Of a stretch of DNA of 64,000 bases, positions 15,065 to 54,230 are shown piece by piece. The notes beneath the pieces were generated by a model. It did not search any database. It saw only the letters and a list, made by a program, of their open reading frames with translations, and was not told the DNA's origin. Source of the DNA: Minisyncoccota bacterium. Lineage in GTDB: Bacteria > Patescibacteriota > Minisyncoccia > Phycocordibacterales > UBA9973. The position numbers and the translations under genes are program-made. Numbering within the stretch: position 1 is the stretch's first letter; every line of letters begins with the position of its first letter. The DNA is taken from positions 123,166 through 187,165 of the forward strand of contig JBAZYS010000001.1 of the NCBI GenBank assembly GCA_041659205.1, read 5' to 3'.

Positions 15065-15100
15065 AAAATCCTCCGCTTTTGGCAGAGGATTTTCGTTTTT
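15065..15100. terminator. Bidirectional Rho-independent terminator shared by the DUF192 operon (+) and rnpB (-).
   Basis: The hairpin is aaaatcctccgc-tttt-gcagaggatttt. A T-run follows on the + strand and U-rich sequence follows on the - strand. Confidence 0.6.
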
Positions 15101-15102
15101 GT

Positions 15103-15448: not shown

Positions 15449-15520
15449 TTTTATACTATAACATATTTATCATTGTATTTCAATGGGTAATTGTGTAGTG
15501 TCTTTTGCGCGATGGGGGGC

Positions 15521-15549
15521 TTGCTTTTTTTATACATGTATGATATACT
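15521..15549 (+). promoter_or_regulatory. Sigma70-like promoter TTGCTT-17-TGaTATACT, positioned to drive a short transcript that would end at the 15609..15635 terminator.
   Basis: The -35 ttgctt (15521-15526), a 17-nt spacer and the extended -10 tgaTATACT (15541-15549) are all read directly from the sequence. Confidence 0.4.
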
Positions 15550-15608
15550 CTTCTTGTGGGTGTGAGGTAAAATTCACATTTATCGTAAACAACATAAGTG
15601 CCGCAAAA

Positions 15609-22897: not shown

Positions 22898-22927
22898 TTG
22901 TTTAATTATTAAGACATACTTTTTGTT

Positions 22928-23428: not shown

Positions 23429-23429
23429 A

Positions 23430-24191
23430 ATGAAACCTTTAAGTGAATTTTCAAAAAAAGATTTTAGTAAAATAAAAATGATAGTTTTTGACGTGGATGG
23501 TGTTCTTGTCCCAAGAGGGACAAAAATAAAACAAAAAGGGAATACTACTACCTTAGAAACAAAAGTAATTCATGCAAAACAAATAGAGCAAATAAAAAAA
23601 CTTTATGAGTATGGATTGTTGATAAATATTAGCTCTGGTAGAGGGCTTTACATGCTTCAAGAAATGTTCAGAGATATTCTACCCTTTGTTAGTCTTACTT
23701 ATGAGAATGGTAGTGCTACTTGGTATAAAGGGCGTGTTTATCAACATGTGAATAGTTTTGAGTACATAAAAGATATTTTTCCTAAATTAAAAAAAGTAGT
23801 AAATAAAAATAAAAAAGTAAAAGGCTTTGAACCCAAAGAATTTATCATTACAATTCATTGTAATGAAAGAGTACCTGAAATTGAAAAAATTGTAAAAAAT
23901 GAAGGAGGTCTTGTTACTGTGTGGAATGGTGAGGCTTATGATATTTTAATAAATAGAAAACAAACAAAAGCAGTAGGGTTGAGGCATGCAATGGAGATTT
24001 TTAAACTGAAAAAAGAAAACGTAATGGCGATAGGAGATAATTATAATGACCAAGAGCTTCTAAGAGAGAGTGGAATGCCTATATCAGCAGATAAAAGCAG
24101 AGTTAAGGGTAAATTTTATGTTCCTCTTAAAGGTAAATTTCTTCCGGCAGATGAGTTAATGCAAAAAATATTAGCTTTAAAAAAATCATGA
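23430..24191 (+). CDS. HAD-superfamily hydrolase (Cof/HAD-IIB-like sugar-phosphate phosphatase).
   Basis: Motif I FDVDGVL and motif IV IGDNYND are present, with a cap insertion between them. Confidence 0.75.
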   Translation: MKPLSEFSKKDFSKIKMIVFDVDGVLVPRGTKIKQKGNTTTLETKVIHAKQIEQIKKLYEYGLLINISSGRGLYMLQEMFRDILPFVSLTYENGSATWYKGRVYQHVNSFEYIKDIFPKLKKVVNKNKKVKGFEPKEFIITIHCNERVPEIEKIVKNEGGLVTVWNGEAYDILINRKQTKAVGLRHAMEIFKLKKENVMAIGDNYNDQELLRESGMPISADKSRVKGKFYVPLKGKFLPADELMQKILALKKS

Positions 24192-24529
24192 AAACTCTTA
24201 TTGTAAAAAAACCCTGGGGTCAGTTTGATCAGTTTACTCATAATGAATTGACAACTGTTAAAATCCTTTCGGTTAATCAAGGTAGCTCTTTGAGCTTACA
24301 ACAACATAACCATAGAACAGAATTTTGGCGGGTTATTTCAGGGCATCCTCAGGTAACCGTCGGAAATGATACAATAATTGCAAATCCCGGGGATGAGTTT
24401 ATAATTGAAGTATTACAATTACATAGATTAGAGGCGCGAGAGGATGACGTCCAAGTCCTAGAAATCGCTTTTGGTGATTTTGATGAAAGTGATATTATAA
24501 GGATAAAGGATAAATATGGCCGCGCCTAA
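24188..24529 (+). CDS. Cupin-domain protein of the mannose-6-phosphate isomerase type II (ManC C-terminal domain-like) class.
   Basis: KPWGQFDQF...LSLQQHNHRTEFWRVISG matches the EKPWG...LSLQ.H.HR.E.W..V.G signature of PMI-type cupins. Confidence 0.65.
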   Translation: MKTLIVKKPWGQFDQFTHNELTTVKILSVNQGSSLSLQQHNHRTEFWRVISGHPQVTVGNDTIIANPGDEFIIEVLQLHRLEAREDDVQVLEIAFGDFDESDIIRIKDKYGRA

Positions 24530-25739
24530 AAAAAAGAAAACAATACAGAAAGTAGTTAAAAAAACTATCAAAAAGGTTATTGTCAAAAAAAAGACAATAA
24601 TAAAAAAATCTGCCGCAAAAATAAAAAAACTTACTAAAAAGACTACTCGTAAAACAAAAAGTAAAACTAATCGTACCCCGAAGACCTTAAAACTCTCCAG
24701 ATCATTTAATAATCCAATCATCGGGCCTAGATCTTATTCTTGGGAATCTCAAGCTGTATTTAATCCAGCTGTTGTATCTTTGGGTGGGAGGATACATCTT
24801 TTTTACAGAGCGCTTGGTGATGATGGAGTTTCACGTATTGGTTATGCTTCTAGTAAAGACGGAATAAATTTTGATGACAGACTTCTCTATCCAGTATATT
24901 TTCTGAAGAATGTGGAGGAGATAAAAGAGCACTGGCCCTTTACTTCTCCATCACGTCCTGTTTATGACACGATGCTTTATGCTTCAGGTGGTGGGTGGGG
25001 TGGCTGTGAAGACCCTCGAGCTGTGGTTATGGATGGTTACGTTTATATGACCTTTAATGTTTTTAGTGGGTGGAATACTATGCGCGTAGCGGTGACTTCA
25101 ATTAAGGAGGAAGATTTACTTGATAAAAAATGGGACTGGAAAAATTTTGCATATCTTACTCGTCCCGGTGATAGACAGAAAAATTGGGTTTTATTTCCTG
25201 AAAAAATAAATGGTAAGTTTGCGATTTTTCATAATTTAGATAAAGGTGATAGTTCAAAAGTTGCAGTAGCTTATGTAAATAAACTTGATTATTCAGAGAC
25301 ACCAGATATCAAAGATGCACCCGATCCCCAAGTATTGCCAGACCATGTGGTCGCTTGGCATAAACGTACCCGTAGCGCTGCTTCACCACCAATAAAAACC
25401 AAGGAAGGCTGGCTTCTTTTATATCATGCGATGGATAAAGAAGATGGTAATCGTTACAAACTAGGAGCATTATTGCTTGATTTAAAAGACCCTGAAAAAG
25501 TTCTTTATAGAGCAGCTCATCCTATTTTTGAACCAGATGCCTGGTACGAAAATGATTGGAAGCCAGGAATTATTTATGCAAGTGGGGCAATCGTGATAAA
25601 AGATAAACTTTTTGTTTATTATGGTGGTGGAGATAAGTATATTGGGGTAGCTTCTGTTTCACTTAATGATTTGATAGATAGTATGAAAAAGAAAGGTTCG
25701 ATAAAATTAGAAAAAAATAAATCACTGAAGTTTGAATAA
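24516..25739 (+). CDS. GH130-family (DUF377) glycoside phosphorylase-like protein with an unusual ~60-aa Lys-rich N-terminal extension.
   Basis: GGGWGGCEDPRAVVMDGYVYMTF contains the GH130 CEDPR motif. The N-terminal MAAPKKKKTIQKVVKKTIKKVIVKKKTIIKKSAAKIKKLTKK has no alternative ATG before the catalytic domain. Confidence 0.75.
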   Translation: MAAPKKKKTIQKVVKKTIKKVIVKKKTIIKKSAAKIKKLTKKTTRKTKSKTNRTPKTLKLSRSFNNPIIGPRSYSWESQAVFNPAVVSLGGRIHLFYRALGDDGVSRIGYASSKDGINFDDRLLYPVYFLKNVEEIKEHWPFTSPSRPVYDTMLYASGGGWGGCEDPRAVVMDGYVYMTFNVFSGWNTMRVAVTSIKEEDLLDKKWDWKNFAYLTRPGDRQKNWVLFPEKINGKFAIFHNLDKGDSSKVAVAYVNKLDYSETPDIKDAPDPQVLPDHVVAWHKRTRSAASPPIKTKEGWLLLYHAMDKEDGNRYKLGALLLDLKDPEKVLYRAAHPIFEPDAWYENDWKPGIIYASGAIVIKDKLFVYYGGGDKYIGVASVSLNDLIDSMKKKGSIKLEKNKSLKFE

Positions 25740-25744
25740 TATCT

Positions 25745-27676
25745 ATGTATGTAGCAAAAAGATCTCACCATAATCCAATCCTTACACCCTATAGAGATAA
25801 CTATTGGGAATCTTTTGCGACCTTTAATATGAGCGTCATTAAAAAAGGTAAAACTTTTTATGGTGTTTATCGTGCTATCGGAGCAGAAGATAAATTACTT
25901 ACACCTAGCCAAATTTCTATAATAGGTATTGGAAAATCAAAAGATGGTAGACATTTCGAAGACCGTATTCCTTTTATTACACCAAAAGAGGAGTGGGAAA
26001 AATACGGCTGTGAAGATCCAAGAATTACATTTTTTGAGGGTAAATATTATACTTTTTATACCGCGCTTTCGAAATTTCCTTTTGAGGCGAGTGGAATCAA
26101 GGTAGCGGTAGCAATTTCAAAGGATTTAAAAAAAGTAAGTGAACGTCATTTGGTGACACCTTTTAATGCAAAAGCGATGACGCTTTTTCCAGAACGTATA
26201 AATGGAAAGATTACAGTTATTGTGACAGTAAATACAGACATGCCTCCTACAAAAATTGCCGTAGCTCAAGTTAATAAAATAGAAGAATTATGGAATCAAA
26301 AATTTTGGGATAAATGGTATGCAAAAATTGATGAACATGTAATTGATTTAAAAAGGGTCCCTACTGATCATACAGAAATTGGTGCTCCTCCGATAAAAAC
26401 CACCCACGGCTGGCTTATTTTATATTCTCATATACAGCACTATTTTTATTCACCTGATAATCATGACCGTATTTTTGGAATTGAGGCAGTCCTTCTCGAT
26501 TTTGAGAATCCTTTGAAGATACTGGGACGCACTCGTGGTCCGATATTAGTACCCAGTGAGGCATACGAACTTCTAGGTCATGTTCCGAATATAGTGTTTC
26601 CTTCTGGGGCTATTTTGGACAAGGATGTTCTCTCTATTTATTATGGAGCGGCAGATACTACTACTTGTCTTGCGCATGTAAATATTATTGACCTTGTTTC
26701 AACTATGCGCCCACAAACAAGTACAAGGTGGCACTTCTTACGTTCTTTGAATAATCCAATTATAAAACCTGATAAAACACATCCATGGGAGGCGCAAGCG
26801 ACTTTCAATCCTGCCGCTTTACGTATTCGAAATACAACTCATATATTGTATAGAGCACTTTCGGCAGACAATACTTCTACTGTTGGTTACGCATCAACTA
26901 AGGATGGTTTTTTTATTAATGAAAGATTGGTTGATCCTGTGTATATTCCAAGAGAAGGTTTTGAATTAAAAAAAATAGCTGGGGGGAATTCAGGATGTGA
27001 AGATCCCAGGCTGACAAAGATAGGGAAGACTATTTATATGTGCTATACCGCTTTTGACGGCATTGGTCCACCACGAGTAGCAGTTACTTCTATCTCAGAG
27101 AAAAATTTTCTTGCAAAAAAGTGGCAATGGGAAAAACCAATTCTAATTACCCCTGCTGGTTTTGACGACAAAGATACTTGTATTTTGTCTGAAAAAACAA
27201 AAGGAAAATATTTTGTTCTTCACCGGGTGGGTGGAGAAGTTTGTGGAGATTATTTAAAATCGCTTAATTTTACAACAGATACTATTAGGAAATGTATTAG
27301 AATTATTGGACCAAGAAAAAATAAATGGGACAGTGAAAAAGTTGGTATTTCTGCGCCACCCCTGAAGACAAAATACGGATGGCTGCTTCTTTATCATGGG
27401 ATATCTAAAAATCACCATACCTATCGCGTTGGGGCGGCACTCCTTGATATAAATGATCCAGCAATAGTGCTCGCTCGTATTTCTGATCCAATATTTGAAC
27501 CAGAAGAATCATATGAGAAAAGTGGGGTAGTTAATGATGTAGTTTTTCCATGTGGAATGGCGGAAAAAGATGGGATACTCTTTATTTATTATGGTGGAGC
27601 AGATACCGTCGTTGGGGTAGCGACAATAGAGCTCGATATTCTCCTTCGTGCTCTTACTCGAGACATAAAAAAGTGA
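25745..27676 (+). CDS. Tandem double GH130-family glycoside phosphorylase-like protein (two DUF377/GH130 domains).
   Basis: There are two CEDPR motifs (YGCEDPRITFFEGKYY and SGCEDPRLTKIGKTIY), and each domain is about 300 aa. Confidence 0.75.
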   Translation: MYVAKRSHHNPILTPYRDNYWESFATFNMSVIKKGKTFYGVYRAIGAEDKLLTPSQISIIGIGKSKDGRHFEDRIPFITPKEEWEKYGCEDPRITFFEGKYYTFYTALSKFPFEASGIKVAVAISKDLKKVSERHLVTPFNAKAMTLFPERINGKITVIVTVNTDMPPTKIAVAQVNKIEELWNQKFWDKWYAKIDEHVIDLKRVPTDHTEIGAPPIKTTHGWLILYSHIQHYFYSPDNHDRIFGIEAVLLDFENPLKILGRTRGPILVPSEAYELLGHVPNIVFPSGAILDKDVLSIYYGAADTTTCLAHVNIIDLVSTMRPQTSTRWHFLRSLNNPIIKPDKTHPWEAQATFNPAALRIRNTTHILYRALSADNTSTVGYASTKDGFFINERLVDPVYIPREGFELKKIAGGNSGCEDPRLTKIGKTIYMCYTAFDGIGPPRVAVTSISEKNFLAKKWQWEKPILITPAGFDDKDTCILSEKTKGKYFVLHRVGGEVCGDYLKSLNFTTDTIRKCIRIIGPRKNKWDSEKVGISAPPLKTKYGWLLLYHGISKNHHTYRVGAALLDINDPAIVLARISDPIFEPEESYEKSGVVNDVVFPCGMAEKDGILFIYYGGADTVVGVATIELDILLRALTRDIKK

Positions 27677-27717: not shown

Positions 27718-30700
27718 ATGAAAAAATTATTACTGACTCGTATTTTAATTGTTAGTACTTTCTTGTTTTGTCTCTTTTTTTCGAGAACAGCTTTTGCGGC
27801 TACTTTAACATTGGGAACTACTGGAGCACTTCCTTTTGATTTAGTAGTGGACGGGGCTGGGAACATATATACAGCGAATTATGTTGCCAGCAATGTTTCG
27901 AAAATTACTCCAGCTGGAGTTTCCACTGTGTTGGGGGTGACGGGTACGAGCCCAGTCGCCATAACTATAGATGCTGCGGGAAATGTGTACACTGCAAATT
28001 CAGGCTCAAATAATGTTTCTAAAATTACCCCAGCGGGAGTGTCAACAATTTTAGGTACTACTGGTTCAAGTCCTTACGGTATAACAATAGACGGAGCAGG
28101 CAATGTGTATACAGCGAATATTGGCTCAAACGATATTTCTAAAATTACTCCAGCAGGGGTGTCTACGATATTTGCAACAACTGGTACTAGTGCACCTTAT
28201 GACATCATTTTGGATGGCGCTGGGAATTTGTATACAGCAAATCCTGGGACGCAAGAGATTTGGAAAATTACCCCCGCTGGTGTCGCTTCTGTTTTAGGCA
28301 CCACTGCGAGTAACGCATACAACTTAGTAATGGATAGTGCCGGTAATATCTACGCGCCAAACTCTAATCCCTCATATACTATTTCTAAAATTACACCAGC
28401 GGGGGCATCTTCCATCTTCGCAGCGGTGACTGCTGACTCTAGTAATATTACAATAGACAGCATCGACAATTTATATATCTCGAATTCCTTTTTGAATAAT
28501 GTTGAGAAGATCACGCCCCTTGGTGTGCTCACGGTTGTGGGTACAACTGGTCTCTATCCGCGTTCTGTTGCGGTGGACGCCACAGGCAATATTTACACAG
28601 GAGACAGCGATTCTAACACTATAACGAAAATTACAAATCCAGCTATCACTGAAACAATACCGGTTCCTAACCCGACAACAACAGATGGTCTATTTTACAC
28701 TTTTGACTCCAATAGTGATGGAGTGATCACTTATGGAGGTTCTTGCAGTTCTGCAACAACGAATGCAGTAGTGGGGAGCAACACAATCACCTTTAATACT
28801 CTTGCAATCGGTACGTACTCTAACTGTTCAATATTTATTACCGACGGGTTTGGCCAGAGCAATACACTCAGTCTCGGATTATTTTATGTAGGTGGAAGTC
28901 ATAACGCTACCGTTTCATCTACGTCTTACACTGTCAGTGTCGGTGGTACGCCGACTGAGACGATAAGTAATGTACCTTACGGAACATCTAAAGCTACATT
29001 TCTTGCAAACTTAACTCCAAACTATGTCGTTCAAACATGGAACGATATTGGTGTTCATGACCCAGTAATTAATGGTGACACTTTGATTATTACTGCAGAA
29101 GATGGCACCACTATAGTGACTTATGATATTTCTGTAATACCTCCAAGTGCTGATGCTACAATTACATCTGCAACATATACCGTGACTGCAGGTGGGACAG
29201 CAAATGAAACTATAAGTAATGTTATGTTTGGAACATCCAAAGCTACTTTTCTTGCAAATTTAAGTCAAGGCTATCCTGTGCAGACATTGAATGATATTGG
29301 GATACATGACCCAGTGGTAAATGGTGACATACTAGTGGTAACTGCAGAAGATGGAATTACAATAGTTACCTACACAGTAGCAGTAAATCCTCAATTAGTT
29401 GGTCCGGCGTCTCTAATAGAATTAGATATTGATATTGCAGGTACAGCTAGTTTTAATTCATATGCTTATGGTCCTAAAAATAATATTTCACTAGATAATA
29501 GATATGTAGTTTTTTCTTCATCTGCAGAAAATCTTGTATTGGATGATACTAATTTAGTAACAGATATTTTTCTAAGAGATACTCAAACAAATACTACAAC
29601 TCGTGTGTCGGTAGCTACTGATGGGGCAGAAGGAAATGCGAGTTCTTATAATACTGCGATTTCTTCTGATGGAAGGTACGTAGTTTTCCAGTCAGATGCC
29701 ACTAATCTTGTATTGGATGATATTAATGGAATGACAGATATTTTTTTAAGAGATACTCAAACAAATACTACAACTCGTGTGTCAGTAGCCACCGATGGGG
29801 CAGAAGGAAATGCGAGTTCTTATAATACTGCGATTTCTTCTGATGGAAGGTACGTAGTTTTCCAATCAGATGCGACCAACTTTGTATTGGATGATACTAA
29901 TTTAGTAACAGATATTTTTCTAAGAGATACTCAAACAAATACTACAACTCGTGTGTCAGTAGCCACCGATGGAACAGAGGGAAATGATTATTCGACAGCA
30001 TCTTTTATATCTTCTGATGGAAGATATGTCGTTTTTGAATCAGTTGCGACTAACCTTGTATTGGATGATACTAATTTAACAACGGATATTTTTCTAAGAG
30101 ATACTCAAACAAATACTACAACTCGTGTGTCGGTAGCTACTGATGGAACCGAAGGGAATAATACTTCCGCTTACTCTGCTATTTCAGGGGATGGTAAATA
30201 TATTGCTTTTCGATCATATGCCACAAACCTTGTAACTGGAGATACAAATAACCAAAGAGATATTTTCTTACGGAATTTGCAAAATAATACTACTACTCGT
30301 GTCTCAGTTTCTTCTTCTGGCGTAGAAGGGGATGGTGCTTCTTATGCTCCTTCCATTTCATCTGACGGAAGATATGTAGCTTTTAGATCGCTTGCCACAA
30401 ATCTTGTAACGGGGGACATAAATAGTTTGTCTGACATTTTTGTACGAGATATTTTAAATAATATCACTACTCGTATATCACTTTCTGTGGACGGGCTAGA
30501 GTCAAACAGTAGTTCTGATTATCCTACTATTTCTGCTGATGGAAAATATGTTGCTTTTCAGTCAAATGCTACAAATCTTATTCCTGATATTCCAGGTTCT
30601 GGCCAGGGTAATTATTATTTAGCTAGAGTTAGAGATCCCATTATTGTCACCCCTGTTCCACAAGATAGTGGTCCGGTTATATTAACTTATGCAGGTAGAG

Positions 30701-31056
30701 TAATGCCTATACTCATTACTCCCATTATTTCAATTACTCCCATTATTCCAATTTCTCCGGTTTTTCAAATGACAGAAACTGTTTGTAGAATAGGAGAAAA
30801 ATTTAGCACAAATACAGGCTTACCCTGTACGTCTTATCAAAATCCTCCAGTATTAAATTGCCCTATTACTCTTACTTTAAGACTTGGCAGTAAGGGAGTT
30901 CAAGTTAAATGCTTGCAGATTGGCCTTAATATATCATCTGATGGTAGTTTTGGCTTAAAAACTAAAGCAGCAGTCATTGTATTTCAAAAGAGTAAAAACT
31001 TAGTACCAGATGGAATTTTTGGGCCTAAATCTAGAGCATTGTGGGACAAGAATTAA
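27718..31056 (+). CDS. Secreted beta-propeller repeat protein. It has an N-terminal repeat region (SKITPAGVSTxxG), six or seven PD40/TolB-like repeats (SSDGRYVVFQSDATNLV..DIFLRD) and a C-terminal peptidoglycan-binding (PG_binding_1-like) domain.
   Basis: Signal peptide MKKLLLTRILIVSTFLFCLFFSRTAFAA is present. The ~58-aa repeats are near-identical. The C-terminus LRLGSKGVQVKCLQIGLNISSDGSFGLKTKAAVIVFQKSKNLVPDGIFGPKSRALW fits the PGBD consensus. Confidence 0.75.
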   Translation: MKKLLLTRILIVSTFLFCLFFSRTAFAATLTLGTTGALPFDLVVDGAGNIYTANYVASNVSKITPAGVSTVLGVTGTSPVAITIDAAGNVYTANSGSNNVSKITPAGVSTILGTTGSSPYGITIDGAGNVYTANIGSNDISKITPAGVSTIFATTGTSAPYDIILDGAGNLYTANPGTQEIWKITPAGVASVLGTTASNAYNLVMDSAGNIYAPNSNPSYTISKITPAGASSIFAAVTADSSNITIDSIDNLYISNSFLNNVEKITPLGVLTVVGTTGLYPRSVAVDATGNIYTGDSDSNTITKITNPAITETIPVPNPTTTDGLFYTFDSNSDGVITYGGSCSSATTNAVVGSNTITFNTLAIGTYSNCSIFITDGFGQSNTLSLGLFYVGGSHNATVSSTSYTVSVGGTPTETISNVPYGTSKATFLANLTPNYVVQTWNDIGVHDPVINGDTLIITAEDGTTIVTYDISVIPPSADATITSATYTVTAGGTANETISNVMFGTSKATFLANLSQGYPVQTLNDIGIHDPVVNGDILVVTAEDGITIVTYTVAVNPQLVGPASLIELDIDIAGTASFNSYAYGPKNNISLDNRYVVFSSSAENLVLDDTNLVTDIFLRDTQTNTTTRVSVATDGAEGNASSYNTAISSDGRYVVFQSDATNLVLDDINGMTDIFLRDTQTNTTTRVSVATDGAEGNASSYNTAISSDGRYVVFQSDATNFVLDDTNLVTDIFLRDTQTNTTTRVSVATDGTEGNDYSTASFISSDGRYVVFESVATNLVLDDTNLTTDIFLRDTQTNTTTRVSVATDGTEGNNTSAYSAISGDGKYIAFRSYATNLVTGDTNNQRDIFLRNLQNNTTTRVSVSSSGVEGDGASYAPSISSDGRYVAFRSLATNLVTGDINSLSDIFVRDILNNITTRISLSVDGLESNSSSDYPTISADGKYVAFQSNATNLIPDIPGSGQGNYYLARVRDPIIVTPVPQDSGPVILTYAGRVMPILITPIISITPIIPISPVFQMTETVCRIGEKFSTNTGLPCTSYQNPPVLNCPITLTLRLGSKGVQVKCLQIGLNISSDGSFGLKTKAAVIVFQKSKNLVPDGIFGPKSRALWDKN
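29530..30580 (+). repeat. Tandem 174-bp coding repeats (six units; the first four are over 90% identical at DNA level) inside the 27718 gene.
   Basis: Unit starts fall at about 29530, 29704, 29878, 30052, 30226 and 30400. Long identical strings such as gatatttttctaagagatactcaaacaaatactacaactcgtgtgtc recur. Confidence 0.8.
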
Positions 31057-45851: not shown

Positions 45852-47297
45852 ATGAAGAAATCAATTTCGGTTTTTGTGTTGGTTTTTTTCTTTTTAGTGG
45901 TTCATCCAGCTTTTGCTAGTTTAAGTATTAATGAGATAAATTATGATTTATCTGGTTCGGATTCTACGAGTAGCAAGGCTCGAGAATGGGTGGAAATTTA
46001 TAATCCTGGTCCCACAGATGTTTCCATTGATGCTACTAAATGGAGATTTTATGATGGAGGAGGGAATAGGACAATAAACGGTGAAGTAGATTTTTCTATT
46101 CCTGCTAATAGTTATGTTATTTTTGCTGGAGACAAAGATACATTTCTTGCGGATCATTCTGGTTTTGGAGGATTAGTTTATGATACTGGCTTTACAAGTT
46201 TAAATAATACAGGGGCGACACTAAAAATTTTAGACCAAGATGGAAATTCTGTCGATGAAGTTAGTTATACATCTTCACAGGGCGGAGCAGGAGATGGAAA
46301 TACTTTGCAAAAAATATCAGGTTCATGGGGTGGCGCAATACCGACACCTGGAATAGCAAATGAAGCTGTCTCTACACCACCCCCTGCTTCTTCTTCAGGT
46401 GGTGGCGGAAGTTCTAACTTATCTACTGCCAATACATCCACAACAGAAACAAAAATAAAAGTAGTTGAAATTCCTAAAATTAAAACTCAAATATTCACCC
46501 AAAATCTTGGTTATGTTAATTTGCCAATTGTTTTTGATGTGATGACTTTAGGATACAGTGGGGAGCAATTACATTATGGAAAATATTATTGGAATTTTGG
46601 CGATGGTGATTCTAAAGAAATACAATTAAATAATAGTAGCAAATTTGCCCATACTTATTTTTATCCTGGAGATTACGTTGTTTCTCTTTCTTATTATTCA
46701 AATTATTACTCAGACAACATAGACGCCTCAGCGCAAAGTACTATAAAAATAGTTGAAGCTGATGTTGTGATATCTAGAGTGGGCGATGAAAAAGATTTTT
46801 TTATTGAGCTATCAAACAATACTGACTACAGTGCTGATCTTTCAAATTGGTCTCTATCGTCTGATAATAAAAGTTTTACAATTCCACGAAATACTATTTT
46901 GGCATCGAAAAAGAAAATGATTATTTCTCCAAAAATTACTGGTTTTATTATAACCGATAAAGATAGTTTAAAATTAATAAATTCAAATATGGAAGTCGTG
47001 TTTGATCATGCTGTTCCTTTAGTTAGGCAAGATTTAATAGTAACTGCAAAAACGGACGTTGGACGTCCGACTGTAATTTCTACGGTAGAAGATATTGCTT
47101 CACCAATTGTTCCATTAGAAAATCTTGGAGCCAATGTATTGCAGAGTGATGCATTGGAAAATAATTCAGATAACACATATTGGCCTATAATTTTTACAGT
47201 TATTTTGGCGGGAGTTGGAGCGGGAGGAGTTTATTTTATCCGTCAGAAAAGGGTTATTCCTGGAGAGGGGGAAGATTTTGAAATTTTAGATGAGTAG
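45852..47297 (+). CDS. Secreted lamin-tail-domain (LTD) plus PKD-domain protein with a C-terminal TM anchor.
   Basis: It has a signal peptide. INEINYD...EWVEIYNPG..V.I..W matches the LTD pattern and YYWNFGDGDS matches the PKD WxFGDG motif. The C-terminal helix is YWPIIFTVILAGVGAGGVYFIRQKR. Confidence 0.7.
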   Translation: MKKSISVFVLVFFFLVVHPAFASLSINEINYDLSGSDSTSSKAREWVEIYNPGPTDVSIDATKWRFYDGGGNRTINGEVDFSIPANSYVIFAGDKDTFLADHSGFGGLVYDTGFTSLNNTGATLKILDQDGNSVDEVSYTSSQGGAGDGNTLQKISGSWGGAIPTPGIANEAVSTPPPASSSGGGGSSNLSTANTSTTETKIKVVEIPKIKTQIFTQNLGYVNLPIVFDVMTLGYSGEQLHYGKYYWNFGDGDSKEIQLNNSSKFAHTYFYPGDYVVSLSYYSNYYSDNIDASAQSTIKIVEADVVISRVGDEKDFFIELSNNTDYSADLSNWSLSSDNKSFTIPRNTILASKKKMIISPKITGFIITDKDSLKLINSNMEVVFDHAVPLVRQDLIVTAKTDVGRPTVISTVEDIASPIVPLENLGANVLQSDALENNSDNTYWPIIFTVILAGVGAGGVYFIRQKRVIPGEGEDFEILDE

Positions 47298-47372
47298 CAG
47301 CATTTTACTATATTAGTTATCCACATAGATATATTTTTCTAGGGTGTTTTTTGATATAATACAATAGTTATC

Positions 47373-50300
47373 GTGAATAAAATGTTAAACAAAAAGACTT
47401 TTAGTTTATTTCTAAAAAAGTTGTTACTTTTAGGTTTTTCTGTGTTTGTAATTTTCTCATTTGCTACTCCTACTTTTGCATTTAATCCTTTTACATATAT
47501 TATCGATACTATAAGTAATTTTATAAATCCTCCAGCCCCTACAGTTCCTATCACTCCTCCTATCTCAAAGCCAGCAGTTAAATCGACAACTGTAAAAAAA
47601 GTTACACCTCCAGTTGTAGTTCCTCCTTCAGAGATAAATACACCACCAGTAAGAACAATAACAGTGCAAGGTCCCGCAGGTCCAAGAGGTCCAGCTGGTC
47701 CACAGGGTGCACAAGGTCCAGCCGGACCAGCAGGACAAACGATAATGTCTCAACCTTCTAGTTACACACCTATACCTGTCAGCTATGCAAATATCGGTAT
47801 TATTCAAGCTAACCCAGCGACCAACTTCGGTGGTAGTAGTATTTTTTCTGCGACAGATTTATCTTCAAGTCACTTCACTACCAATACTGCAAAAGTGACA
47901 GATCTAACTGTAACCGGGAGTTCAACCTTAGGAGCTTTAAATATTGTTGGAAATTCCACTCTCACGGGTAATTTAAATGTTACTGGAAATTCCATTCTTA
48001 CTGGAAACTTAAATGTAACTGGTGCAATCACTGGTTCAATTAACCCAAGTCTTACCCTCGGTTCGGTTTATTTTCAAGGAGCAAGTGGAATGACCGAAGA
48101 TAATGCAAACTTTTTTTATGATGAGACGAACCATAGATTAGGGTTGGGAACAGTTACCCCGACTTCTAAATTGGAAATAAATAGTACAGCAGCACCAACA
48201 GGTGCTGAGCTCATTACGAATGGAACATTTACTGGAGGTACAACGGGGTGGACGTTAGGAACTGACGTTGCTTATGGAACAAATAATGTCATAAGTACAT
48301 ATAATGGAGGTGATCCAAGTATTTCTACTACTTTTGATACAGTTTCAGGAAATACATATATTTTTACATTTGTAGTATCGAATGCGAATACTTCAGGACA
48401 AATATATTTTAGCAACAATACAAGTCCTTCTAGTAATATTTTTGTAAATGGAACATACAGTGTTATTTTTCAAGCTAATTTTACAGGTACAGATACTGTA
48501 AATTTTAATGATATTAGTTTTGTTGTCGGAGATACTTGGACAATTGATAATGTTTCGATAAAGCAAACAAATATATCTCCTGCGCTAAAAATTATTGGTT
48601 ATGATGGGGCTACTTGGTTTTCTTTGGGTTCAGATATATTAGGCAATATTGCGTTGGGTAGTTCAGCGCTTTCTTCTAATACTGTAGGTTATGGGAATAC
48701 AGCTACTGGATATCAATCTCTTTTTTCTAATACAACAGGACGTGACAATACAGCTTTAGGGAATAAAGCACTTTATTCTAACACTACAGGTATTAGAAAT
48801 ACAGCAATCGGACAGAATTCCTTAACTTTCAATACAACAGGTCAAGACAATACTGCAACAGGAAGGGAAACTTTAAAATATAACACAACAGGGAGGTATA
48901 ATACTGCAAATGGTTTGTATGCTCTTACTTTCAACACAACTGGTCAAAACAATACTGCAGTTGGTATTCATGCTCTTTATTCAAATACGATAGGTTCTAA
49001 CAATACTGCTAGTGGTAATTCTACGCTTAACTCAAATACTACTGGATATTACAATACTGCCCAGGGTTCCTTGGCCCTTTATGATTTAACTGGTGAGGCT
49101 GCTGTGACTGCTGGGTCATTTAATGTTGGAACAGAATACACAATTGAAACTTTAGGAGATACAGATTTTACTCTTGTTGGTGCTGGAATTAATGCTGTTG
49201 GAGAAATATTTACAGCTACCGATGTTGGTTCTGGTACAGGTACGGCTACTTTAAATACTGGAAATAACACTGCGCTTGGTTACAATACAGGAAGAGGAAT
49301 TGTTACCGGAATAAACAATACAATAATCGGAGCAAATGTTACGGGGCTTGATGCTGCTCTTTCTGGTAATATTATTATTGCTGACGGTCAAGGAAATAGA
49401 AGAATAAATGTGGATAGTTTAGGTAAAGTAGGTATCGGTACAACAACACCTACTGCTAAATTGGAAATAAGTGGTACAGCAACACCAACAGGTGCTGAGC
49501 TCATTACGAATGGAACATTTACAGGGAGCGCAGTTGGGTGGACATTAGGAACTGATGTTGTGTTTAACGCAGGGACTGATAATGTAACGAGTACTTATGC
49601 AGGTGGTGATCCAAATATTTCCACGACATTTGAAACTGTAGCAGGAAATACATATCTTCTTACTTTTACAGTCTCAAGTGCAAATGCTCCAATGTATTTT
49701 TTCCTTAGTAATTTCTTTAATTATTTTTCAGGTCCATTCGTAAATGGTACACATACTGTTGCTTTTCAGACTGATTTTACCGGGACAGAGACAATAAACT
49801 TTTCTAATTCCAATAATGTTGTAACTGATGCTTTTACGCTTGATGATGTTTCAATCAGACAAACAACCCTATTGTCTCCTGGTTTAAAAGTTATTGGTTA
49901 TGATGGGAATACATGGCTTTCTGTTGGTGGGGATATTTTAGGGAATACTGCGTTAGGTAATTCATCATTAACTTCTAACACCACGGGTAAAAATAATACT
50001 GCAAATGGTTTACGGGCCCTTTATTCTAATACTATTGGTGATTTTAATACTGCGAATGGTAAGGACGCCCTTTTTTCTAACACCGATGGTTCTGACAACA
50101 CAGCTACCGGTTTATCTGCTTTAAGATTTAATACTAATGGCTCCCAAAATACTGCCAATGGTGCGTATGCATTAAATTTTAATGATAGTGGTGGTGACAA
50201 TACTGCTAATGGTTTTGCTGCTCTCTATCGTAATACTGGAGGTGTTAATAACACCGCGAGTGGTGCTTCAGCCCTTTATTCAAATTTAGGTAGTGAAGTA

Positions 50301-52403
50301 TATCATTGGCAAACAGATTCTTATACATATACAGGTTCTTCTAACACAGCAAATGGTTCTACTGCTCTCTACTTAAATACTACAGGAAACAATAATACAG
50401 CAATTGGTGCAAATGCTCTTTCAGTAAATAGTGTTGGTTCTAGCAATGTTGCTTTGGGATATGCGGCTGGTTCATTCGAAACAGGCTCTAATGCTTTTTA
50501 TGTAAATAATATTCAACAAACTTCTTTATCTAATGATCAAAACTTTTCGCTTCTATATGGAAAATTTTCTGGAGTAGCTGGTTCTACGGTAGGTCAGCAA
50601 CTTGTAATTAACGGTAACGTTGGAATTGGGACACCAACGCCTAATAATCTTTTACAAGTAGCAGGTTTGATTGATTTTAATAATACTGATTTTGATACAA
50701 AGCTTGGATATCAGGCAGGAAATAATATTGTAGTTGGAGCTCAATATAATACTTTTGCTGGCTATCAGGCTGGATTATCTAGTGCAACGCTTAGTACGAA
50801 TGCGGCTGATTATAATAGTGCTTTTGGTTACCAAGCTTTATTTTCCAATACCACTGGTTTACTCAATACAACTATTGGTGCTTTTTCTCTTACTGCCAAT
50901 ACTTCTGGTATATCCAATACGGCAAGTGGCGTAAACTCGCTTTTAGCTAATACCACAGGTTCTTCCAACGTAGCTTATGGTAAAGATTCATTTAGAAATA
51001 ACACTACTGGTTCAAGCAATACTGTTATTGGTTATAATTCAGGATTAGGAATTACAACCGGTGATAACAATACGATTATTGGTGCCAACGTAGGTCAGCT
51101 TTTAGCTGGGCTTTCTAATAATATTATTATTGCTGACGGTCAAGGAAATAGAAGAATAAATGTAAATAGTGTAGGGAATGTCGGTATTGGTAATATAAAT
51201 TCAGCAACTCTTTTTTCCGTTACTCCTACTCAGTATAGTACAGGTACGGCTGGGCAATCTCTAACTACAATTACAGGCATAGGAACGACATTTACTTCTG
51301 CGATGGTGGGCTCACAGTTTGTTTTTGCTGACGGCACAAATGCAGGTACGATTACAGCATTTACTGATACGACCCATCTCACTGTTTCTACTTCCCAAAC
51401 AGTTTCATCATTTCAGGCTTTTAAAATTGGATATACTGGTTTACAAGTAGGGAGTACAGGAAATATCGGTATTGGAACGACGTCTCCATCCAACGTCCTT
51501 CATGTCACAGGGGCACCAGCTACTGGCACAGCAGTTGCGAGAATAGCAAATACTCTTGCAGGAACAACTCAAAATAATGGACTTTTAATTTTAGCCGGAA
51601 ATGACACAGGCGTAGCTGCTTCAGAATTAATTACTTTTCAGAGGCCTGATGCTACTGTTATCGGAAGTATTTCTCAAACTGCAGCTGCTGCAATTGCGTA
51701 TAACTCAGGTTCAGATCTACGAATTAAAGATAACATTGTACCTACAGTCTATGGTCTATCAGACTTAATGAAAATAAAAGTAGACGACTTTACTTTTATC
51801 AGTGATATAAACAAACAAAAGATGACAGGTTTCATCGCTCAGGAATTAAAAGATATTTATCCTGGAGCTGTTACCACTAACGGTGACAATGGTACAGATG
51901 CGCTTGCCCTTGGCATGACTCCATGGATGATAGATTATTCCAAGCTTACTCCGCTCATCGTGAAAGCAGTACAAGATTTAAATCTAAGCATAGATGCAGT
52001 TACAGGAACTGTCACTCCAGTTACTGGCTCACCAGCAGAAACTTTTATGACAGCATTCTTTAATAATATTTATTCCAAGGTAGGAGCATGGCTTGCAGAT
52101 GCAGGGAATAGTGTCACAGATATTTTCGCAAATACATTTCATGCTAAAGATAAATTGTGTATCAACAATACTTGTGTGACTGAAGCAGAACTGCAAGCAC
52201 TTTTACAAAATTATGGAACGTCGGCATCTACTCCTACTCCTGCACCCGTAGTTCCAACTTGTACAACTACTCAAACTTTGGTAAATAATGTTTGCGTGGA
52301 TTCTGCACCTGCACCTATGCCAGCCCCAGACCCAATTCCAGCACCGGCTCCTGACCCAGTTCCTGCTCCCACACCTGACCCTACTCCTGCCCCAGTTATT
52401 TAG
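47373..52403 (+). CDS. Giant (1676 aa) secreted collagen-like / tail-fibre-like protein with a C-terminal peptidase-S74 intramolecular-chaperone auto-processing domain.
   Basis: It has a signal peptide, a Pro-rich spacer and a collagen G-X-Y run (GPAGPRGPAGPQGAQGPAGPAGQ, about 47671-47736). NTA(T/N)G..AL..NTTG repeats are present. An internal ~400-aa duplicated lectin/CBM-like module (ELITNGTFTG..GWTLGTDV) occurs twice. The C-terminus SDLRIKDNIVP...MTGFIAQELKDIYPGAV (about 51705-52000) matches the S74 consensus S-D-x-R-x-K...GFIAQE. The protein ends in a Pro-rich tail. The track start at 47373 is GTG and the first ATG is at 47382. The extended -10 tgaTATAAT lies at 47352-47360. Confidence 0.75.
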   Translation: MNKMLNKKTFSLFLKKLLLLGFSVFVIFSFATPTFAFNPFTYIIDTISNFINPPAPTVPITPPISKPAVKSTTVKKVTPPVVVPPSEINTPPVRTITVQGPAGPRGPAGPQGAQGPAGPAGQTIMSQPSSYTPIPVSYANIGIIQANPATNFGGSSIFSATDLSSSHFTTNTAKVTDLTVTGSSTLGALNIVGNSTLTGNLNVTGNSILTGNLNVTGAITGSINPSLTLGSVYFQGASGMTEDNANFFYDETNHRLGLGTVTPTSKLEINSTAAPTGAELITNGTFTGGTTGWTLGTDVAYGTNNVISTYNGGDPSISTTFDTVSGNTYIFTFVVSNANTSGQIYFSNNTSPSSNIFVNGTYSVIFQANFTGTDTVNFNDISFVVGDTWTIDNVSIKQTNISPALKIIGYDGATWFSLGSDILGNIALGSSALSSNTVGYGNTATGYQSLFSNTTGRDNTALGNKALYSNTTGIRNTAIGQNSLTFNTTGQDNTATGRETLKYNTTGRYNTANGLYALTFNTTGQNNTAVGIHALYSNTIGSNNTASGNSTLNSNTTGYYNTAQGSLALYDLTGEAAVTAGSFNVGTEYTIETLGDTDFTLVGAGINAVGEIFTATDVGSGTGTATLNTGNNTALGYNTGRGIVTGINNTIIGANVTGLDAALSGNIIIADGQGNRRINVDSLGKVGIGTTTPTAKLEISGTATPTGAELITNGTFTGSAVGWTLGTDVVFNAGTDNVTSTYAGGDPNISTTFETVAGNTYLLTFTVSSANAPMYFFLSNFFNYFSGPFVNGTHTVAFQTDFTGTETINFSNSNNVVTDAFTLDDVSIRQTTLLSPGLKVIGYDGNTWLSVGGDILGNTALGNSSLTSNTTGKNNTANGLRALYSNTIGDFNTANGKDALFSNTDGSDNTATGLSALRFNTNGSQNTANGAYALNFNDSGGDNTANGFAALYRNTGGVNNTASGASALYSNLGSEVYHWQTDSYTYTGSSNTANGSTALYLNTTGNNNTAIGANALSVNSVGSSNVALGYAAGSFETGSNAFYVNNIQQTSLSNDQNFSLLYGKFSGVAGSTVGQQLVINGNVGIGTPTPNNLLQVAGLIDFNNTDFDTKLGYQAGNNIVVGAQYNTFAGYQAGLSSATLSTNAADYNSAFGYQALFSNTTGLLNTTIGAFSLTANTSGISNTASGVNSLLANTTGSSNVAYGKDSFRNNTTGSSNTVIGYNSGLGITTGDNNTIIGANVGQLLAGLSNNIIIADGQGNRRINVNSVGNVGIGNINSATLFSVTPTQYSTGTAGQSLTTITGIGTTFTSAMVGSQFVFADGTNAGTITAFTDTTHLTVSTSQTVSSFQAFKIGYTGLQVGSTGNIGIGTTSPSNVLHVTGAPATGTAVARIANTLAGTTQNNGLLILAGNDTGVAASELITFQRPDATVIGSISQTAAAAIAYNSGSDLRIKDNIVPTVYGLSDLMKIKVDDFTFISDINKQKMTGFIAQELKDIYPGAVTTNGDNGTDALALGMTPWMIDYSKLTPLIVKAVQDLNLSIDAVTGTVTPVTGSPAETFMTAFFNNIYSKVGAWLADAGNSVTDIFANTFHAKDKLCINNTCVTEAELQALLQNYGTSASTPTPAPVVPTCTTTQTLVNNVCVDSAPAPMPAPDPIPAPAPDPVPAPTPDPTPAPVI

Positions 52404-52457
52404 GGCAACATAACTAATTTTAATATTCAATTAAGGCTTTGAAATAAGGGTTTTTTG

Positions 52458-52466
52458 TGTTATAAT
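52458..52466 (+). promoter_or_regulatory. Extended -10 TGtTATAAT 6 nt upstream of the ATG at 52473 (leaderless). This supports 52473 rather than 52455 as the ABC gene start.
   Basis: The context is tgtTATAATtgcgaaATG. Confidence 0.5.
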
Positions 52467-52472
52467 TGCGAA

Positions 52473-54230
52473 ATGTTCGTGAAAAAGCTTTTTCATCATA
52501 TTTGGCCACAGATTAATAAATACAAATGGTCTTTTTATCTGACATTTGTTTTTTATGCTATTAGAATATTTTTTGGATCTGTTCTTAATGTTTATTTTTT
52601 CAAGAAAATAATTGATGTCATGTCCAATCCTTCTTTTTCGAGGGAGGTTTTAGCTGCGCAGCTTATTTATCTTGTTATTTTAAATATTTTGATAATGGTT
52701 GGTGGAAATATTTTTTCTCGTCTTGGAGCTTGGAGTATTGTTTATTTTCAGAGCAATATGATGCGAGAACTTTCGGATTATTCTTTTAGACAAATAATAA
52801 AGAATTCTTACGGTTTTTTTTCTAATAATTTTTCTGGTAGCCTAGTGACCAAGTCTAGGCGCTTTGTGCGGGCCTTTGAGGTAATGCATGATACGCTTAT
52901 TTTTAATTTTTGGGGAACATTTATTGTATTAACGGGTGTTTTTATGGTTCTTTTTACGCAGGCACCATTTATTGCTTCAATCTTTTTATCCTGGGTTTTT
53001 GTTTACATTATAATTGTCTCCTTTTTCATCAAAAAAAGAATGAGCTACGATATTGCTAAGGCTGCTGCCGACTCAAGGGTTGGGGGGAGACTAGCTGATG
53101 TTTTTTCAAATGTATTTGCTCTAAAGGTTTTTTCTGCGGGAGAAAAAGAAAAAGTTTCTTTTGGTGAAGTTACTCGCAATGAAGAAGAACATCGAAATAA
53201 TTCTTGGTATTTTGGAAACAAACAAGATACTTTACAAGCAGGACTAATGACAATAATCCAAGCTTTTGTTTTGTATCTAATTATAAAACTTTGGATTGCT
53301 GGTTCTATGAATACAGGTACTGTTGTTCTGATTCAAACTTATATGATAATGATTTTTGAGAGATTGTGGGACCTTGGTAAAGCAACGACAAAATTTATGG
53401 AATCTGCTGCTGATATGAAGGAAGTCATAGATATTTTTGAAATTGTGCCAGATATTAAGGACCCAGAAGTTCCTGAGCCACTGAGGATGAAAACCGGGAA
53501 TATTGAGTTTAAAGATGTTTCTTTTGTTTATGCTTCTGGCCAACATGTTTTTAATAATTTTAATTTGAAAATAAAACCTGGGGAAAGGGTTGGTATTGTT
53601 GGTCATTCTGGTGCTGGAAAGACAACAGTTACTAAATTACTTTTAAGGTTTATCGATGTATCTTCTGGTGTGATAGAAATCGATGGACAGGATGTCCGTA
53701 CAGTTTTACAAGATGATTTAAGAAGAGTAATTTCTTATGTTCCCCAAGAGCCAATTTTATTTCACAGAAGTATTAGAGAAAATATTGCTTATGGTGAACC
53801 CGACGCCACCATCGAACAAATAATTGAGGCTGCTCAAAAAGCGCATGCGGATGAGTTTATAAAGAATTTTAAATACGGATATGATACTCTTGTCGGTGAG
53901 CGGGGAGTAAAACTTTCTGGTGGAGAAAGACAGAGAATAATAATTGCTCGTGCAATGTTGAAAAATTCTCCCGTGCTTGTGTTAGATGAAGCTACTAGTT
54001 CACTTGATAGTATTAGTGAGTCATATATCCAAAATGCTTTTAGTGAATTGATGAAAGGTAAGACAACCATTGTGATTGCCCATCGTCTTTCTACTGTGCA
54101 AAAAATGGACAGAATAATTGTCCTTGATGAAGGTGTGATTGTAGAAGATGGAACACATAAGGAATTATTAGAAAAAGGTGGTGTTTATGCCAATTTATGG
54201 AATCACCAAACAGGCGGATTTTTAAATTAA
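52473..54230 (+). CDS. ABC exporter with fused transmembrane and ATPase domains (MsbA-like half-transporter).
   Basis: There are six N-terminal TM helices. Walker A GHSGAGKTT, the signature LSGGERQR, and Walker B VLVLDEATS are all present. Confidence 0.85.
   Translation: MFVKKLFHHIWPQINKYKWSFYLTFVFYAIRIFFGSVLNVYFFKKIIDVMSNPSFSREVLAAQLIYLVILNILIMVGGNIFSRLGAWSIVYFQSNMMRELSDYSFRQIIKNSYGFFSNNFSGSLVTKSRRFVRAFEVMHDTLIFNFWGTFIVLTGVFMVLFTQAPFIASIFLSWVFVYIIIVSFFIKKRMSYDIAKAAADSRVGGRLADVFSNVFALKVFSAGEKEKVSFGEVTRNEEEHRNNSWYFGNKQDTLQAGLMTIIQAFVLYLIIKLWIAGSMNTGTVVLIQTYMIMIFERLWDLGKATTKFMESAADMKEVIDIFEIVPDIKDPEVPEPLRMKTGNIEFKDVSFVYASGQHVFNNFNLKIKPGERVGIVGHSGAGKTTVTKLLLRFIDVSSGVIEIDGQDVRTVLQDDLRRVISYVPQEPILFHRSIRENIAYGEPDATIEQIIEAAQKAHADEFIKNFKYGYDTLVGERGVKLSGGERQRIIIARAMLKNSPVLVLDEATSSLDSISESYIQNAFSELMKGKTTIVIAHRLSTVQKMDRIIVLDEGVIVEDGTHKELLEKGGVYANLWNHQTGGFLN

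Follow-up and report, generated by a model that had tools for sequence, protein, structure and literature searches.

A candidate cell-surface fibre of phage tail-fibre type in the chromosome of a Minisyncoccota bacterium

Introduction

To whom does a giant fibre gene in a stretch of Minisyncoccota DNA belong (contig JBAZYS010000001.1, positions 123,166 to 187,165; hereafter the window, meaning the whole 64,000 nucleotides analyzed), and does it work with the genes on either side of it? The gene lies within positions 45852–54230 of the window, between a gene for a protein with LTD and PKD domains and a gene for a half-size ABC exporter. All three open reading frames (ORFs) are present where a first-pass annotation had placed them, and that annotation had grouped them as a surface-fibre module. 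We consider it reasonably probable instead that the fibre gene is a stand-alone cellular homologue of phage tail fibres, which would encode a trimeric surface fibre similar to the mosaic adhesive trimer (MAT) fibres of Bdellovibrio and form no operon with its neighbours. The product is probably a cell-surface adhesin.

The ORF (47373..52403, + strand) encodes 1676 amino acids (aa) from a GTG codon, and the residue numbers used here follow that count. The true start is probably the ATG at 47382, which gives a protein of 1673 aa. A protein from a Candidatus Paceibacterota metagenome-assembled genome (MAG), encoded on a 239-kb contig (P0001 in NCBI/JGI), is 100% identical, is 1673 aa long and starts at this ATG, so that the NCBI protein begins at Met4. 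It carries the NCBI name 'tail fiber domain-containing protein [Candidatus Paceibacterota bacterium]'. An extended -10-like element, TGATATAAT, was read by eye at ~47352–47360, before the ATG.

The C-terminal S74 domain and its cassette

The C terminus of the fibre was predicted to hold an auto-chaperone that is followed by a further segment:

51711..52007, + strand: Peptidase_S74 intramolecular chaperone/auto-protease core, aa 1447 to ~1545
51711–51713, + strand: putative catalytic Ser1447
51726–51728, + strand: putative catalytic Lys1452
52008..52400, + strand: C-terminal extension of the released fragment, aa 1546–1676

An SD-x-R-x-K chaperone domain of the S74 type had been proposed here, and profile and structure searches had been named as the checks on it; both support S74. 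The Pfam model Peptidase_S74 (PF13884) matched aa 1447–1500 with an E-value of 8.6e-8 and 32.8 bits against a cut-off of 22, and the alignment spans profile positions 1–57 of 58. The match begins at SDLRIK (aa 1447–1452, nucleotides (nt) 51711–51728), in which, across an alignment with 19 diverse homologues, Ser1447 and Lys1452 are invariant and the aspartate and arginine are conserved to 90% or more. The profile made from this alignment matched five independent solved S74 chaperones in the PDB, namely 8jov (1.3e-20), the S16 fibre 6f45 (4.3e-18), MyRF 7dc3 (1.1e-12), T5 pb1 8hqz (7.2e-12), and phi29 gp12 3gud (7.5e-5), while the fold search likewise returned the ICA domain of MyRF. Because the Pfam score, the invariant Ser/Lys pair, the PDB profile matches and the fold match agree, the S74 assignment holds as a prediction from sequence and model. 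The cut is predicted between Gly1446 and Ser1447. In addition, phrog_9942 (tail fiber) matches across this boundary, at aa 1394–1553 (5e-18).

Beyond the core, aa 1546–1676 comprise two long helices, a C-x4-C hairpin, a Pro-rich tail and a C-x10-C hairpin. Core and extension together form a cassette of ~250 aa, which is 65–86% identical in P0002 (1145 aa), P0005 (1406 aa) and P0015, three proteins from loci L003/L004 and L087 whose bodies differ; that of P0005 is a lactonase/NHL beta-propeller. Since such similar cassettes end proteins with differing bodies, the modules appear to have been shuffled, in a manner that resembles the shuffling of phage receptor-binding proteins.

The duplicated modules, repeat arrays and tip

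The body of the fibre is built from neck motifs, globular modules and arrays of short repeats:

48135..48602, + strand: neck motif LGLGTVTPTSKL (aa 256–267) and CBM-like jelly-roll module 1 (aa ~255–410)
48621..49082, + strand: 17-residue repeat array 1, xSNTTGxxNTAxGxxAL, ~9 units, aa 417–570
49425..49922, + strand: neck motif VGIGTTTPTAKL (aa 686–697) and CBM-like module 2 (aa ~685–850)
49920..50480, + strand: 17-residue repeat array 2, aa 850–1036
50721..51128, + strand: 17-residue repeat array 3, aa 1117–1252, with a neck motif before it at aa 1083–1094
51150..51710, + strand: distal tip region with neck/capping motif IGIGTTSPSNVL (aa 1365–1376), aa 1260–1446

Self-comparison of the whole protein by BLAST returned the identity hit alone, whereas BLAST of the protein in chunks exposed a duplication of aa 204–570 and aa 639–1000 at ~60% identity, which appears to be a large, ancient, tandem event. 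Each copy consists of a neck motif, a globular ~150-aa module and an array of strict repeats of 17 residues, and the two modules themselves are 61% identical.

The first-pass annotation had called the duplicated module lectin- or carbohydrate-binding-module (CBM)-like, and the model of its fold agrees. The AF2 model has a pLDDT of 75.6 overall and above 90 in the core. Its top Foldseek matches are CBM4-2, CBM29, CBM16, CBM22, Cry1/Vip3 domains and the CBMs of phage tailspikes, with a probability of 1.0 for 4bj0, 2y64, 1gwl, 2zex, 1cx1, and 1gui and for the tailspike CBMs 5w6h, 8iq9, and 7xyc. A profile of the module matched the PDB entries of a GH10 CBM (4mgq, 6.6e-5) and, at ~0.05, the CenC CBM4; through the neck motif it also matched the MAT structures 8ond (Bd2133, 2.2e-8), 8ojn, 8oml, 8on4, and 8ol4. 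The window copy had no Pfam match, and its homologues matched AlcCBM31 (0.023) and DUF642 (5.9e-5) weakly. Overall, the module is modelled as a CBM4/16/22/29-type jelly roll, with putative sugar binding.

The hundreds of residues of NTxxG repeats described earlier are present as 23 strict motifs in three arrays, with a spacing of mostly 17 residues. They match the PHROG families phrog_23837, phrog_4636 (tail spike) and phrog_6002, of tail-spike and virion-structural type, with values from 1e-53 to 1e-61, and tblastn aligns them at 35–48% identity with tail-fibre genes from pelagiphages, roseophages, cyanophages and SPO1; sequence comparison thus shows their homology with the tail-fibre and tail-spike families of phages. 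The neck motif, G[IVL]GTxxPxxxL, is present in four copies, at aa 256, 686, 1083, and 1365.

The last neck lies in the region (aa 1260–1446) that cleavage is predicted to leave at the C terminus of the mature fibre and that, by analogy with the S74 fibres of phage T5 and Bd3182 (PMC10769870), may be the binding tip. The tip (aa 1255–1447) gave nothing significant against the PDB, the best match being the tip of Bd3182 (8ojn) at an E-value of 0.15. The full-length fibre gave only chance matches in a phmmer search of PDB sequences, so profiles of subregions were needed, and NCBIfam has no model for the protein.

The N-terminal region

The N-terminal half opens with three short elements:

47382..47480, + strand: Sec-type signal peptide or signal-anchor, aa 4–36, consisting of MLNKKTFSLFLKK, a hydrophobic core and TFA|F
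47481..47669, + strand: Pro-rich linker, aa 37–99, with 14 prolines in aa 37–98
47670..47741, + strand: collagen-like run of eight G-X-Y triplets, aa 100–123

Read directly from the sequence, aa 4–36 have a Sec-like n-h-c pattern ending in TFA|F, as expected from the Sec signal noted before. At the same end, the fibre homologues P0060 and P0070 have a cytoplasmic helix-turn-helix (HTH) followed by one transmembrane (TM) helix before the fibre, and their predicted topology thus shows that N-in/C-out anchoring exists within the family. The HTH heads of P0060 (L002, 10001–15574) and P0070 give weak MerR/HTH_17 matches; the TM helix, the fibre repeats and S74 follow them. This combination of a DNA-binding head with a membrane-anchored S74 fibre is reminiscent of MYRF, except that S74 lies on the outside.

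The protein had also been called a collagen-like fibre. A short run of eight triplets is real, and the TRF program finds a DNA repeat of period 9 over it, at 47669–47734. However, Pfam Collagen (PF01391) scores 17.2 bits against a cut-off of 27.2, and the run is found in only four of the 120 best homologues. A weak match to phrog_1806 ('collagen like minor tail', 0.0079) was also obtained. The name is an overstatement for the 1676-aa protein, because the run covers 24 of 1676 residues, is subthreshold in Pfam and is not a family feature.

A model for the fibre

The proposed mechanism draws on established knowledge of S74 fibres and on the MAT fibres, and from these we infer trimer formation, cleavage, surface tethering and ligand. 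The N-terminal signal or signal-anchor would direct the fibre into the Sec export route. The S74 intramolecular chaperone would register three chains from the C terminus and drive folding of the shaft, while the repeat arrays and the short collagen run would zip into a long homotrimeric shaft. The Ser1447–Lys1452 pair would then cut between Gly1446 and Ser1447, which would free a C-terminal fragment of 230 aa and expose the tip (aa ~1260–1446). The mature fibre may remain tethered at its N terminus, either by an uncleaved TM segment or by a Pro-rich segment in the wall; the Pro-rich linker would span the wall and the collagen run could act as an N-terminal trimer clamp. In this arrangement, the tip and the two lateral CBM-like modules may bind surface glycans of another cell or particle.

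Four points weigh against this picture. Retention on the cell lacks an explanation if the signal peptide is cleaved. The fibre appears to be without the conserved N-terminal docking domain of MAT fibres, aa 37–123 not being globular and beta-rich. The fibre family also occurs in free-living Limnobacter and Bacteroidota. Lastly, a related locus (L085) has an S74 fibre two genes downstream of the LTD orthologue, which may signify a functional link to the LTD protein.

Distribution of the fibre type and its possible functions

A word-index search, in which 8000 candidates were scored, gave at least 1081 homologues of the fibre at E≤1e-10. Those listed are mostly 1000–2900 aa long, many lie on contigs of 0.1–1.5 Mb, and their hosts are Paceibacterota, Nomurabacteria, Moranbacteria, Dehalococcoidales, Bacteroidota and, above all, free-living Limnobacter. 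The S74 end is present in 79 of the 120 best homologues, and NCBI gives such proteins the standard name 'tail fiber domain-containing protein'. When the last 277 aa were searched exhaustively, 26,031 clusters (50% identity) were returned at E≤1e-3, 2,899 at 1e-10, and 129 at 1e-30. Because there are more than 1000 cellular homologues and 26,031 clusters with the C-terminal domain, and because an NCBI name already exists, free-standing bacterial genes with this combination of features are not rare. The combination had been thought unusual for such a gene, a view that the Bdellovibrio MAT fibres, which are similar, also contradict (PMC10769870). The Nomurabacteria locus L002 has two S74 fibre genes, at 10001–15574 and 20775–25574, within 5 kb of each other, and the type is thus multi-copy in at least some genomes of the candidate phyla radiation (CPR). 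No literature describing such fibres was found in searches for Peptidase_S74 or tail fibres in Patescibacteria/CPR.

By analogy with MAT fibres, a host-contact role of the fibre in an episymbiont is plausible. The family alone does not imply this role, since it has members in free-living Limnobacter and Bacteroidota, and the same molecule could do a more general job as a matrix, particle or biofilm adhesin or as an envelope fibre. We regard such a general role as possible, although on balance doubtful. It accords with the abundance of close architectural relatives in those free-living bacteria, with the capacity of CBM-like modules to bind polysaccharides in general, and with the several other giant surface proteins that are encoded in the window. 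Against it, MAT fibres act in cell–cell recognition (PMC10769870), and the shuffling of cassettes and bodies resembles the evolution of receptor-binding proteins, though neither point is decisive.

Neighbouring genes and the question of a module

The fibre gene is flanked on the same strand by the two genes that had been proposed to function with it:

45852..47297, + strand: LTD-PKD-LTD protein, 481 aa; a neighbour, not assigned to the fibre
52439..52466, + strand: sigma-70-like promoter, TTGAAA-16-(TG)TATAAT, before the ABC gene; a consensus match only
52473..54230, + strand: half-size MsbA-like ABC exporter; a neighbour, not assigned to the fibre

Each neighbour is what it had been taken for. 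The first matches Pfam LTD in two stretches (2.8e-23, 82.8 bits against 34.3) and, marginally, PKD (1.4e-5, 25.4 bits against 23.5), with PKD_4 below its cut-off; it has a signal-like N-terminal segment and a C-terminal TM helix at aa 443–463, in keeping with a membrane anchor. The second, an ORF of 591 aa at 52455–54230, matches Pfam ABC_membrane and ABC_tran. All of its NCBIfam matches fall under their cut-offs, those of the type I secretion (T1SS) and bacteriocin models far under, and the protein begins directly with the TM domain, with no C39 peptidase domain. The promoter-like site, which lies between the fibre stop and the ATG at 52473, has 11 of 12 consensus matches, the highest score of any site in 11.7 kb. 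The nominal TTG start at 52455 overlaps it, and its extended -10 ends 6 nt before the ATG. This would leave the ABC mRNA almost without a leader, and the true start is probably the ATG at 52473 and not the TTG.

A three-gene module, with the LTD/PKD membrane protein as anchor of the fibre and the ABC exporter secreting or otherwise serving it, would account for three adjacent genes on one strand with gaps of 75 and ~50–70 bp. The synteny of the LTD gene points elsewhere. Full-length orthologues, 51–64% identical, occur in about a dozen related lineages, and the orthologue follows rpe-tktN-tktC-pfkB(-) wherever the locus includes the upstream sequence. In contrast, the genes 3' of it are unrelated in 11 lineages: YchF, EamA, DUF5671, LeuRS, a TPR protein and MurJ in L005, L006, and L009, the last with an ABC gene ~10 kb past LTD; a P-type ATPase in L007; enolase in L015; a response regulator in L013; and other genes in L014, L017, L088–L090, and L099. 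Among the loci examined, only the window and L085 have an S74 fibre close to LTD. The latter is the closest relative by transketolase identity (86%), yet its LTD protein is 34% identical, and its gene order is LTD, a 578-aa membrane protein, a 934-aa S74 fibre, and then CsoR and a Cu-ATPase, with no ABC gene. A fibre-like protein of 1526 aa without S74 also lies three ORFs downstream of LTD in the L012/L093 lineage. These two cases speak for a module.

Seen from the fibre side, eight loci of fibre homologues were examined for neighbours, and the homologues occupy at least eight differing housekeeping contexts. P0003 has TGT on one side and a giant protein and OrnDC on the other; P0060 lies by ATP synthase, with a second S74 gene 5 kb off; P0002 adjoins GatC, P0015 an M48 peptidase and GatC, P0004 TGT, and P0069 GrpE and PaaX. 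An ABC neighbour was found in none of the eight loci and an LTD neighbour in one (L085). Cofunction with the ABC exporter is disfavoured because adjacency is not conserved, because of the promoter-like sites, and because the fibre has a Sec-type N terminus; in addition, the exporter has neither a C39 domain nor type I secretion scores above NCBIfam cut-offs. The proximity of fibre and LTD is at most weak and lineage-restricted. We thus judge the module improbable, and the best explanation of the arrangement, as far as gene order and promoter-like sites indicate, is a stand-alone fibre gene that is not in an operon with its neighbours.

The rpe-tkt-pfkB-LTD block varies most in its flank downstream of LTD and is otherwise conserved. 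Many contigs with an LTD orthologue, L008, L010, L011, L013, L092, L097, L100, and L101 among them, end at most ~1 kb past LTD or inside it. The flank may be a variable surface-gene spot that breaks assemblies, or the MAG contigs may merely be short.

A protein with a CarboxypepD_reg domain and several TM helices was considered as a conserved partner of the fibre and rejected. In four of nine loci, the number used for this comparison, such a module directly adjoins the S74 fibre gene, namely in L001 (16124–19972), L003/L004 (L004, 2–1171), L085 (6242–7978), and L087 (2–1231); in the others it does not. These modules are 60–82% identical to the end of window ORF 4644–9350, where the corresponding C terminus lies at 8295–9347, and 33% identical in L085. 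The adjacency could reflect a recurrent partner or anchor or mere clustering of surface-protein genes. Because the window orthologue lies 38 kb from the fibre, the protein is a lead and not a part of the system.

Genomic setting

The window has a GC content of 0.31–0.40, that of a chromosomal stretch of a low-GC genome, and the fibre gene (0.35–0.39) does not differ from its flanks, which include transketolase, PfkB, LepA, enolase and DnaE. The metabolic genes of the window comprise a split transketolase, Rpe, RpiB, GAPDH, PfkB, enolase and PPDK, and DnaE, LepA, DivIC, HisRS, Def, Fmt, LepB and Pth are also encoded. Among the window ORFs, scans with Pfam, PHROGs and PADLOC detected neither phage structural, terminase or integrase genes nor contractile-injection or defence genes, PADLOC giving generic ABC ATPase matches only. 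Rfam found tRNAs only, and TRF only short, diverged arrays. The fibre gene has no adjoining tRNA or repeat boundary; the nearest tRNAs lie at a distance of over 10 kb. It was also considered as the target of a diversity-generating retroelement, a candidate that was dropped; no window ORF matched a reverse transcriptase in the Pfam scans.

The first reading of the locus held that no phage genes lie nearby and that this is not a prophage tail fibre, and the whole window bears this out. Because its 64-kb surroundings consist of housekeeping genes, the fibre is not prophage-encoded, and the data support a native chromosomal, cellular, non-prophage gene. The cellular half of the description of a domesticated trimeric fibre gains support from this setting, while the trimer itself is inferred. 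A fibre of a phage, prophage remnant, tailocin or contractile-injection system, that is, a component of a virion or particle and not a cell-surface protein, would explain the repeats and S74, which are typical of phage tail fibres, as well as the NCBI name. We consider it very unlikely: the 64-kb window has no capsid, terminase, portal, tail, sheath, baseplate or integrase genes, the composition and boundaries are as described, and the N terminus is signal-like, a criterion of our own. Moreover, no phage record found by tblastn is more than 60% identical to the fibre or covers ≥80% of it, and homologues are flanked by housekeeping genes on contigs as long as 1.5 Mb. We regard as highly improbable a tailspike-like depolymerase that bears an enzyme and degrades polysaccharide, as do endosialidases, which also end in S74 and on which this domain was first described. 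The repeats do match two uncultured phage records annotated 'endo n acetylneuraminidase' (H6, H7), but only the repeat arrays take part in these matches; Pfam, NCBIfam and a PDB sequence search gave no glycosidase, lyase or esterase domain, and the only globular modules found are noncatalytic CBM-type jelly rolls.

Other surface-protein genes occur in the window. Three adjacent paralogous giants at 204–13030 (ORFs 204–4589, 4644–9350, and 9350–13030; 1461, 1568, and 1226 aa) carry NHL/Vgb_lyase propellers and CarboxypepD_reg domains, and the products of ORFs 204–4589 and 9350–13030 are 45% identical over 1139 aa. At the corresponding place in a related genome (L001), the S74 fibre P0003 (2005 aa) and a single mosaic protein of 1282 aa sit upstream of OrnDC and DUF192. 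A 1112-aa signal-bearing surface protein at 27718–31056 has NHL, PD40 and Kelch propeller repeats and a C-terminal PG_binding_1 peptidoglycan-binding domain, a wall anchoring that the fibre does not have. Just before it, at 24516–27676, two tandem genes of the mannoside phosphorylase family GH130, the second with a long N-terminal extension, adjoin a cytidylyltransferase-like gene and a HAD hydrolase gene.

Wider meaning

How ultrasmall CPR bacteria recognize and hold their hosts is largely unsolved, and the literature found concerns type IV pili. A phage-type receptor-binding fibre on a CPR surface is a testable candidate for host specificity, and this one offers a predictable cleavage site and CBM-like modules suited to expression and glycan-array screening. 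As a conjecture that we think rather unlikely to hold, Paceibacteria and Nomurabacteria, perhaps CPR bacteria generally, might use a repertoire of phage-derived, S74-matured trimeric fibres for host recognition, in the way of the Bdellovibrio MAT fibres. Under this conjecture, bodies, CBM modules and C-terminal cassettes would be shuffled between genes, and the downstream flank of LTD and the giant-surface-protein cluster at 204–13030 would be recurrent landing sites. If it were true, the fibres would determine which host an episymbiont attaches to. The gene itself is a representative candidate and not the discovery of a new system: it is one among more than 1000 similar named genes, many of which belong to free-living bacteria, and nothing in the window locus distinguishes it.

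Comparison with known systems

The fibre shares traits with several known groups of proteins. With BclA, Scl and collagen-like phage tail fibres it has in common a G-X-Y run beside a trimeric fibre, whereas its own run is only eight subthreshold triplets that do not characterize the family. Like trimeric autotransporter adhesins, it would be a repetitive trimeric fibre rich in Gly, Asn, Thr and Ala with short periodic repeats, and JGI labels several of its homologues as YadA/Hep_Hag type. However, its anchoring, if any, is N-terminal, and its C terminus is S74 with a Pro-rich tail; Pfam YadA_anchor and Hep_Hag do not match the window fibre, which has no YadA-type beta-barrel anchor. Within the NCBI 'tail fiber domain-containing protein' set, of which it is a member (P0001), it is one of many giants with repeat arrays, most with S74. 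That name is descriptive only, and the window fibre differs from most of the set in its collagen run (four of 120) and its duplicated CBM-like module.

MYRF is a eukaryotic membrane-bound transcription factor, the cut of which frees a DNA-binding domain from the endoplasmic reticulum (ER) membrane. Unlike the cut of the MYRF ICA domain (7DC3), that of the window fibre is predicted outside the cell and would release the chaperone only. Phage fibres (K1F endosialidase 3GW6, T5 pb1 8HQZ/4UW8, S16 6F45, phi29 gp12 3GUD and 8JOV) share the S74 domain, and phage tail fibres have the same type of repeat, PHROG tail-fibre and tail-spike families matching the window fibre. In contrast to them, the window fibre has no surrounding phage genome, bears a putative N-terminal export signal and is larger than most.

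The MAT fibres of Bdellovibrio bacteriovorus were described by Caulton et al. 2024 (PMC10769870). There are 21 paralogues with a signal peptide, 13 of which end in S74 with SDxxxK; the fibres were experimentally found to be trimeric and displayed on the surface of the predator, and one member binds prey glycans (PMC10769870). Self-cleavage of Bd3182 was shown at S782, so that the fibre ends at A781; its full-length model measures ~550 Å, from which a length of roughly 70–100 nm may be extrapolated for the window fibre. The capping-loop motif V-G-G/N-pi-x-x-P-x-x-x-L is common to MAT and MyRF (PMC10769870). Relatives were noted in other bacteria, in a table that has predators and Omnitrophica but no CPR bacteria (PMC10769870).

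The hosts differ, a diderm predator in the one case and a member of the Paceibacterota (CPR) in the other. The MAT family has a ~130-aa domain, beta-rich and conserved, right after the signal peptide (PMC10769870), a trait that the window fibre probably lacks; at this position it has the Pro-rich linker and eight collagen triplets (aa 37–123). It also has two CBM-like modules inserted in the shaft, a shaft built of a 17-residue repeat, neck motifs one residue longer than the published MAT consensus, and, in the released fragment, an extra ~130-aa module that carries two Cys hairpins and a Pro-rich tail. Otherwise, the window fibre resembles a MAT fibre on every point open to comparison. The window fibre and the S74 subgroup of MAT fibres (e.g., Bd3182) are cellular, chromosomally encoded, ~1000 aa or more in length and equipped with an N-terminal signal, a putative one in the window fibre. 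Both have a phage-like fibre body, predicted to be trimeric in the window fibre, with V-G-x-G-T-x-x-P-x-x-x-L necks, in four copies here, and a C-terminal S74 with SDxxxK, and both are mosaic, with swappable ends. As judged by the shared neck motif and S74 end, the Bdellovibrio MAT fibres are the closest characterized relatives of the window fibre.

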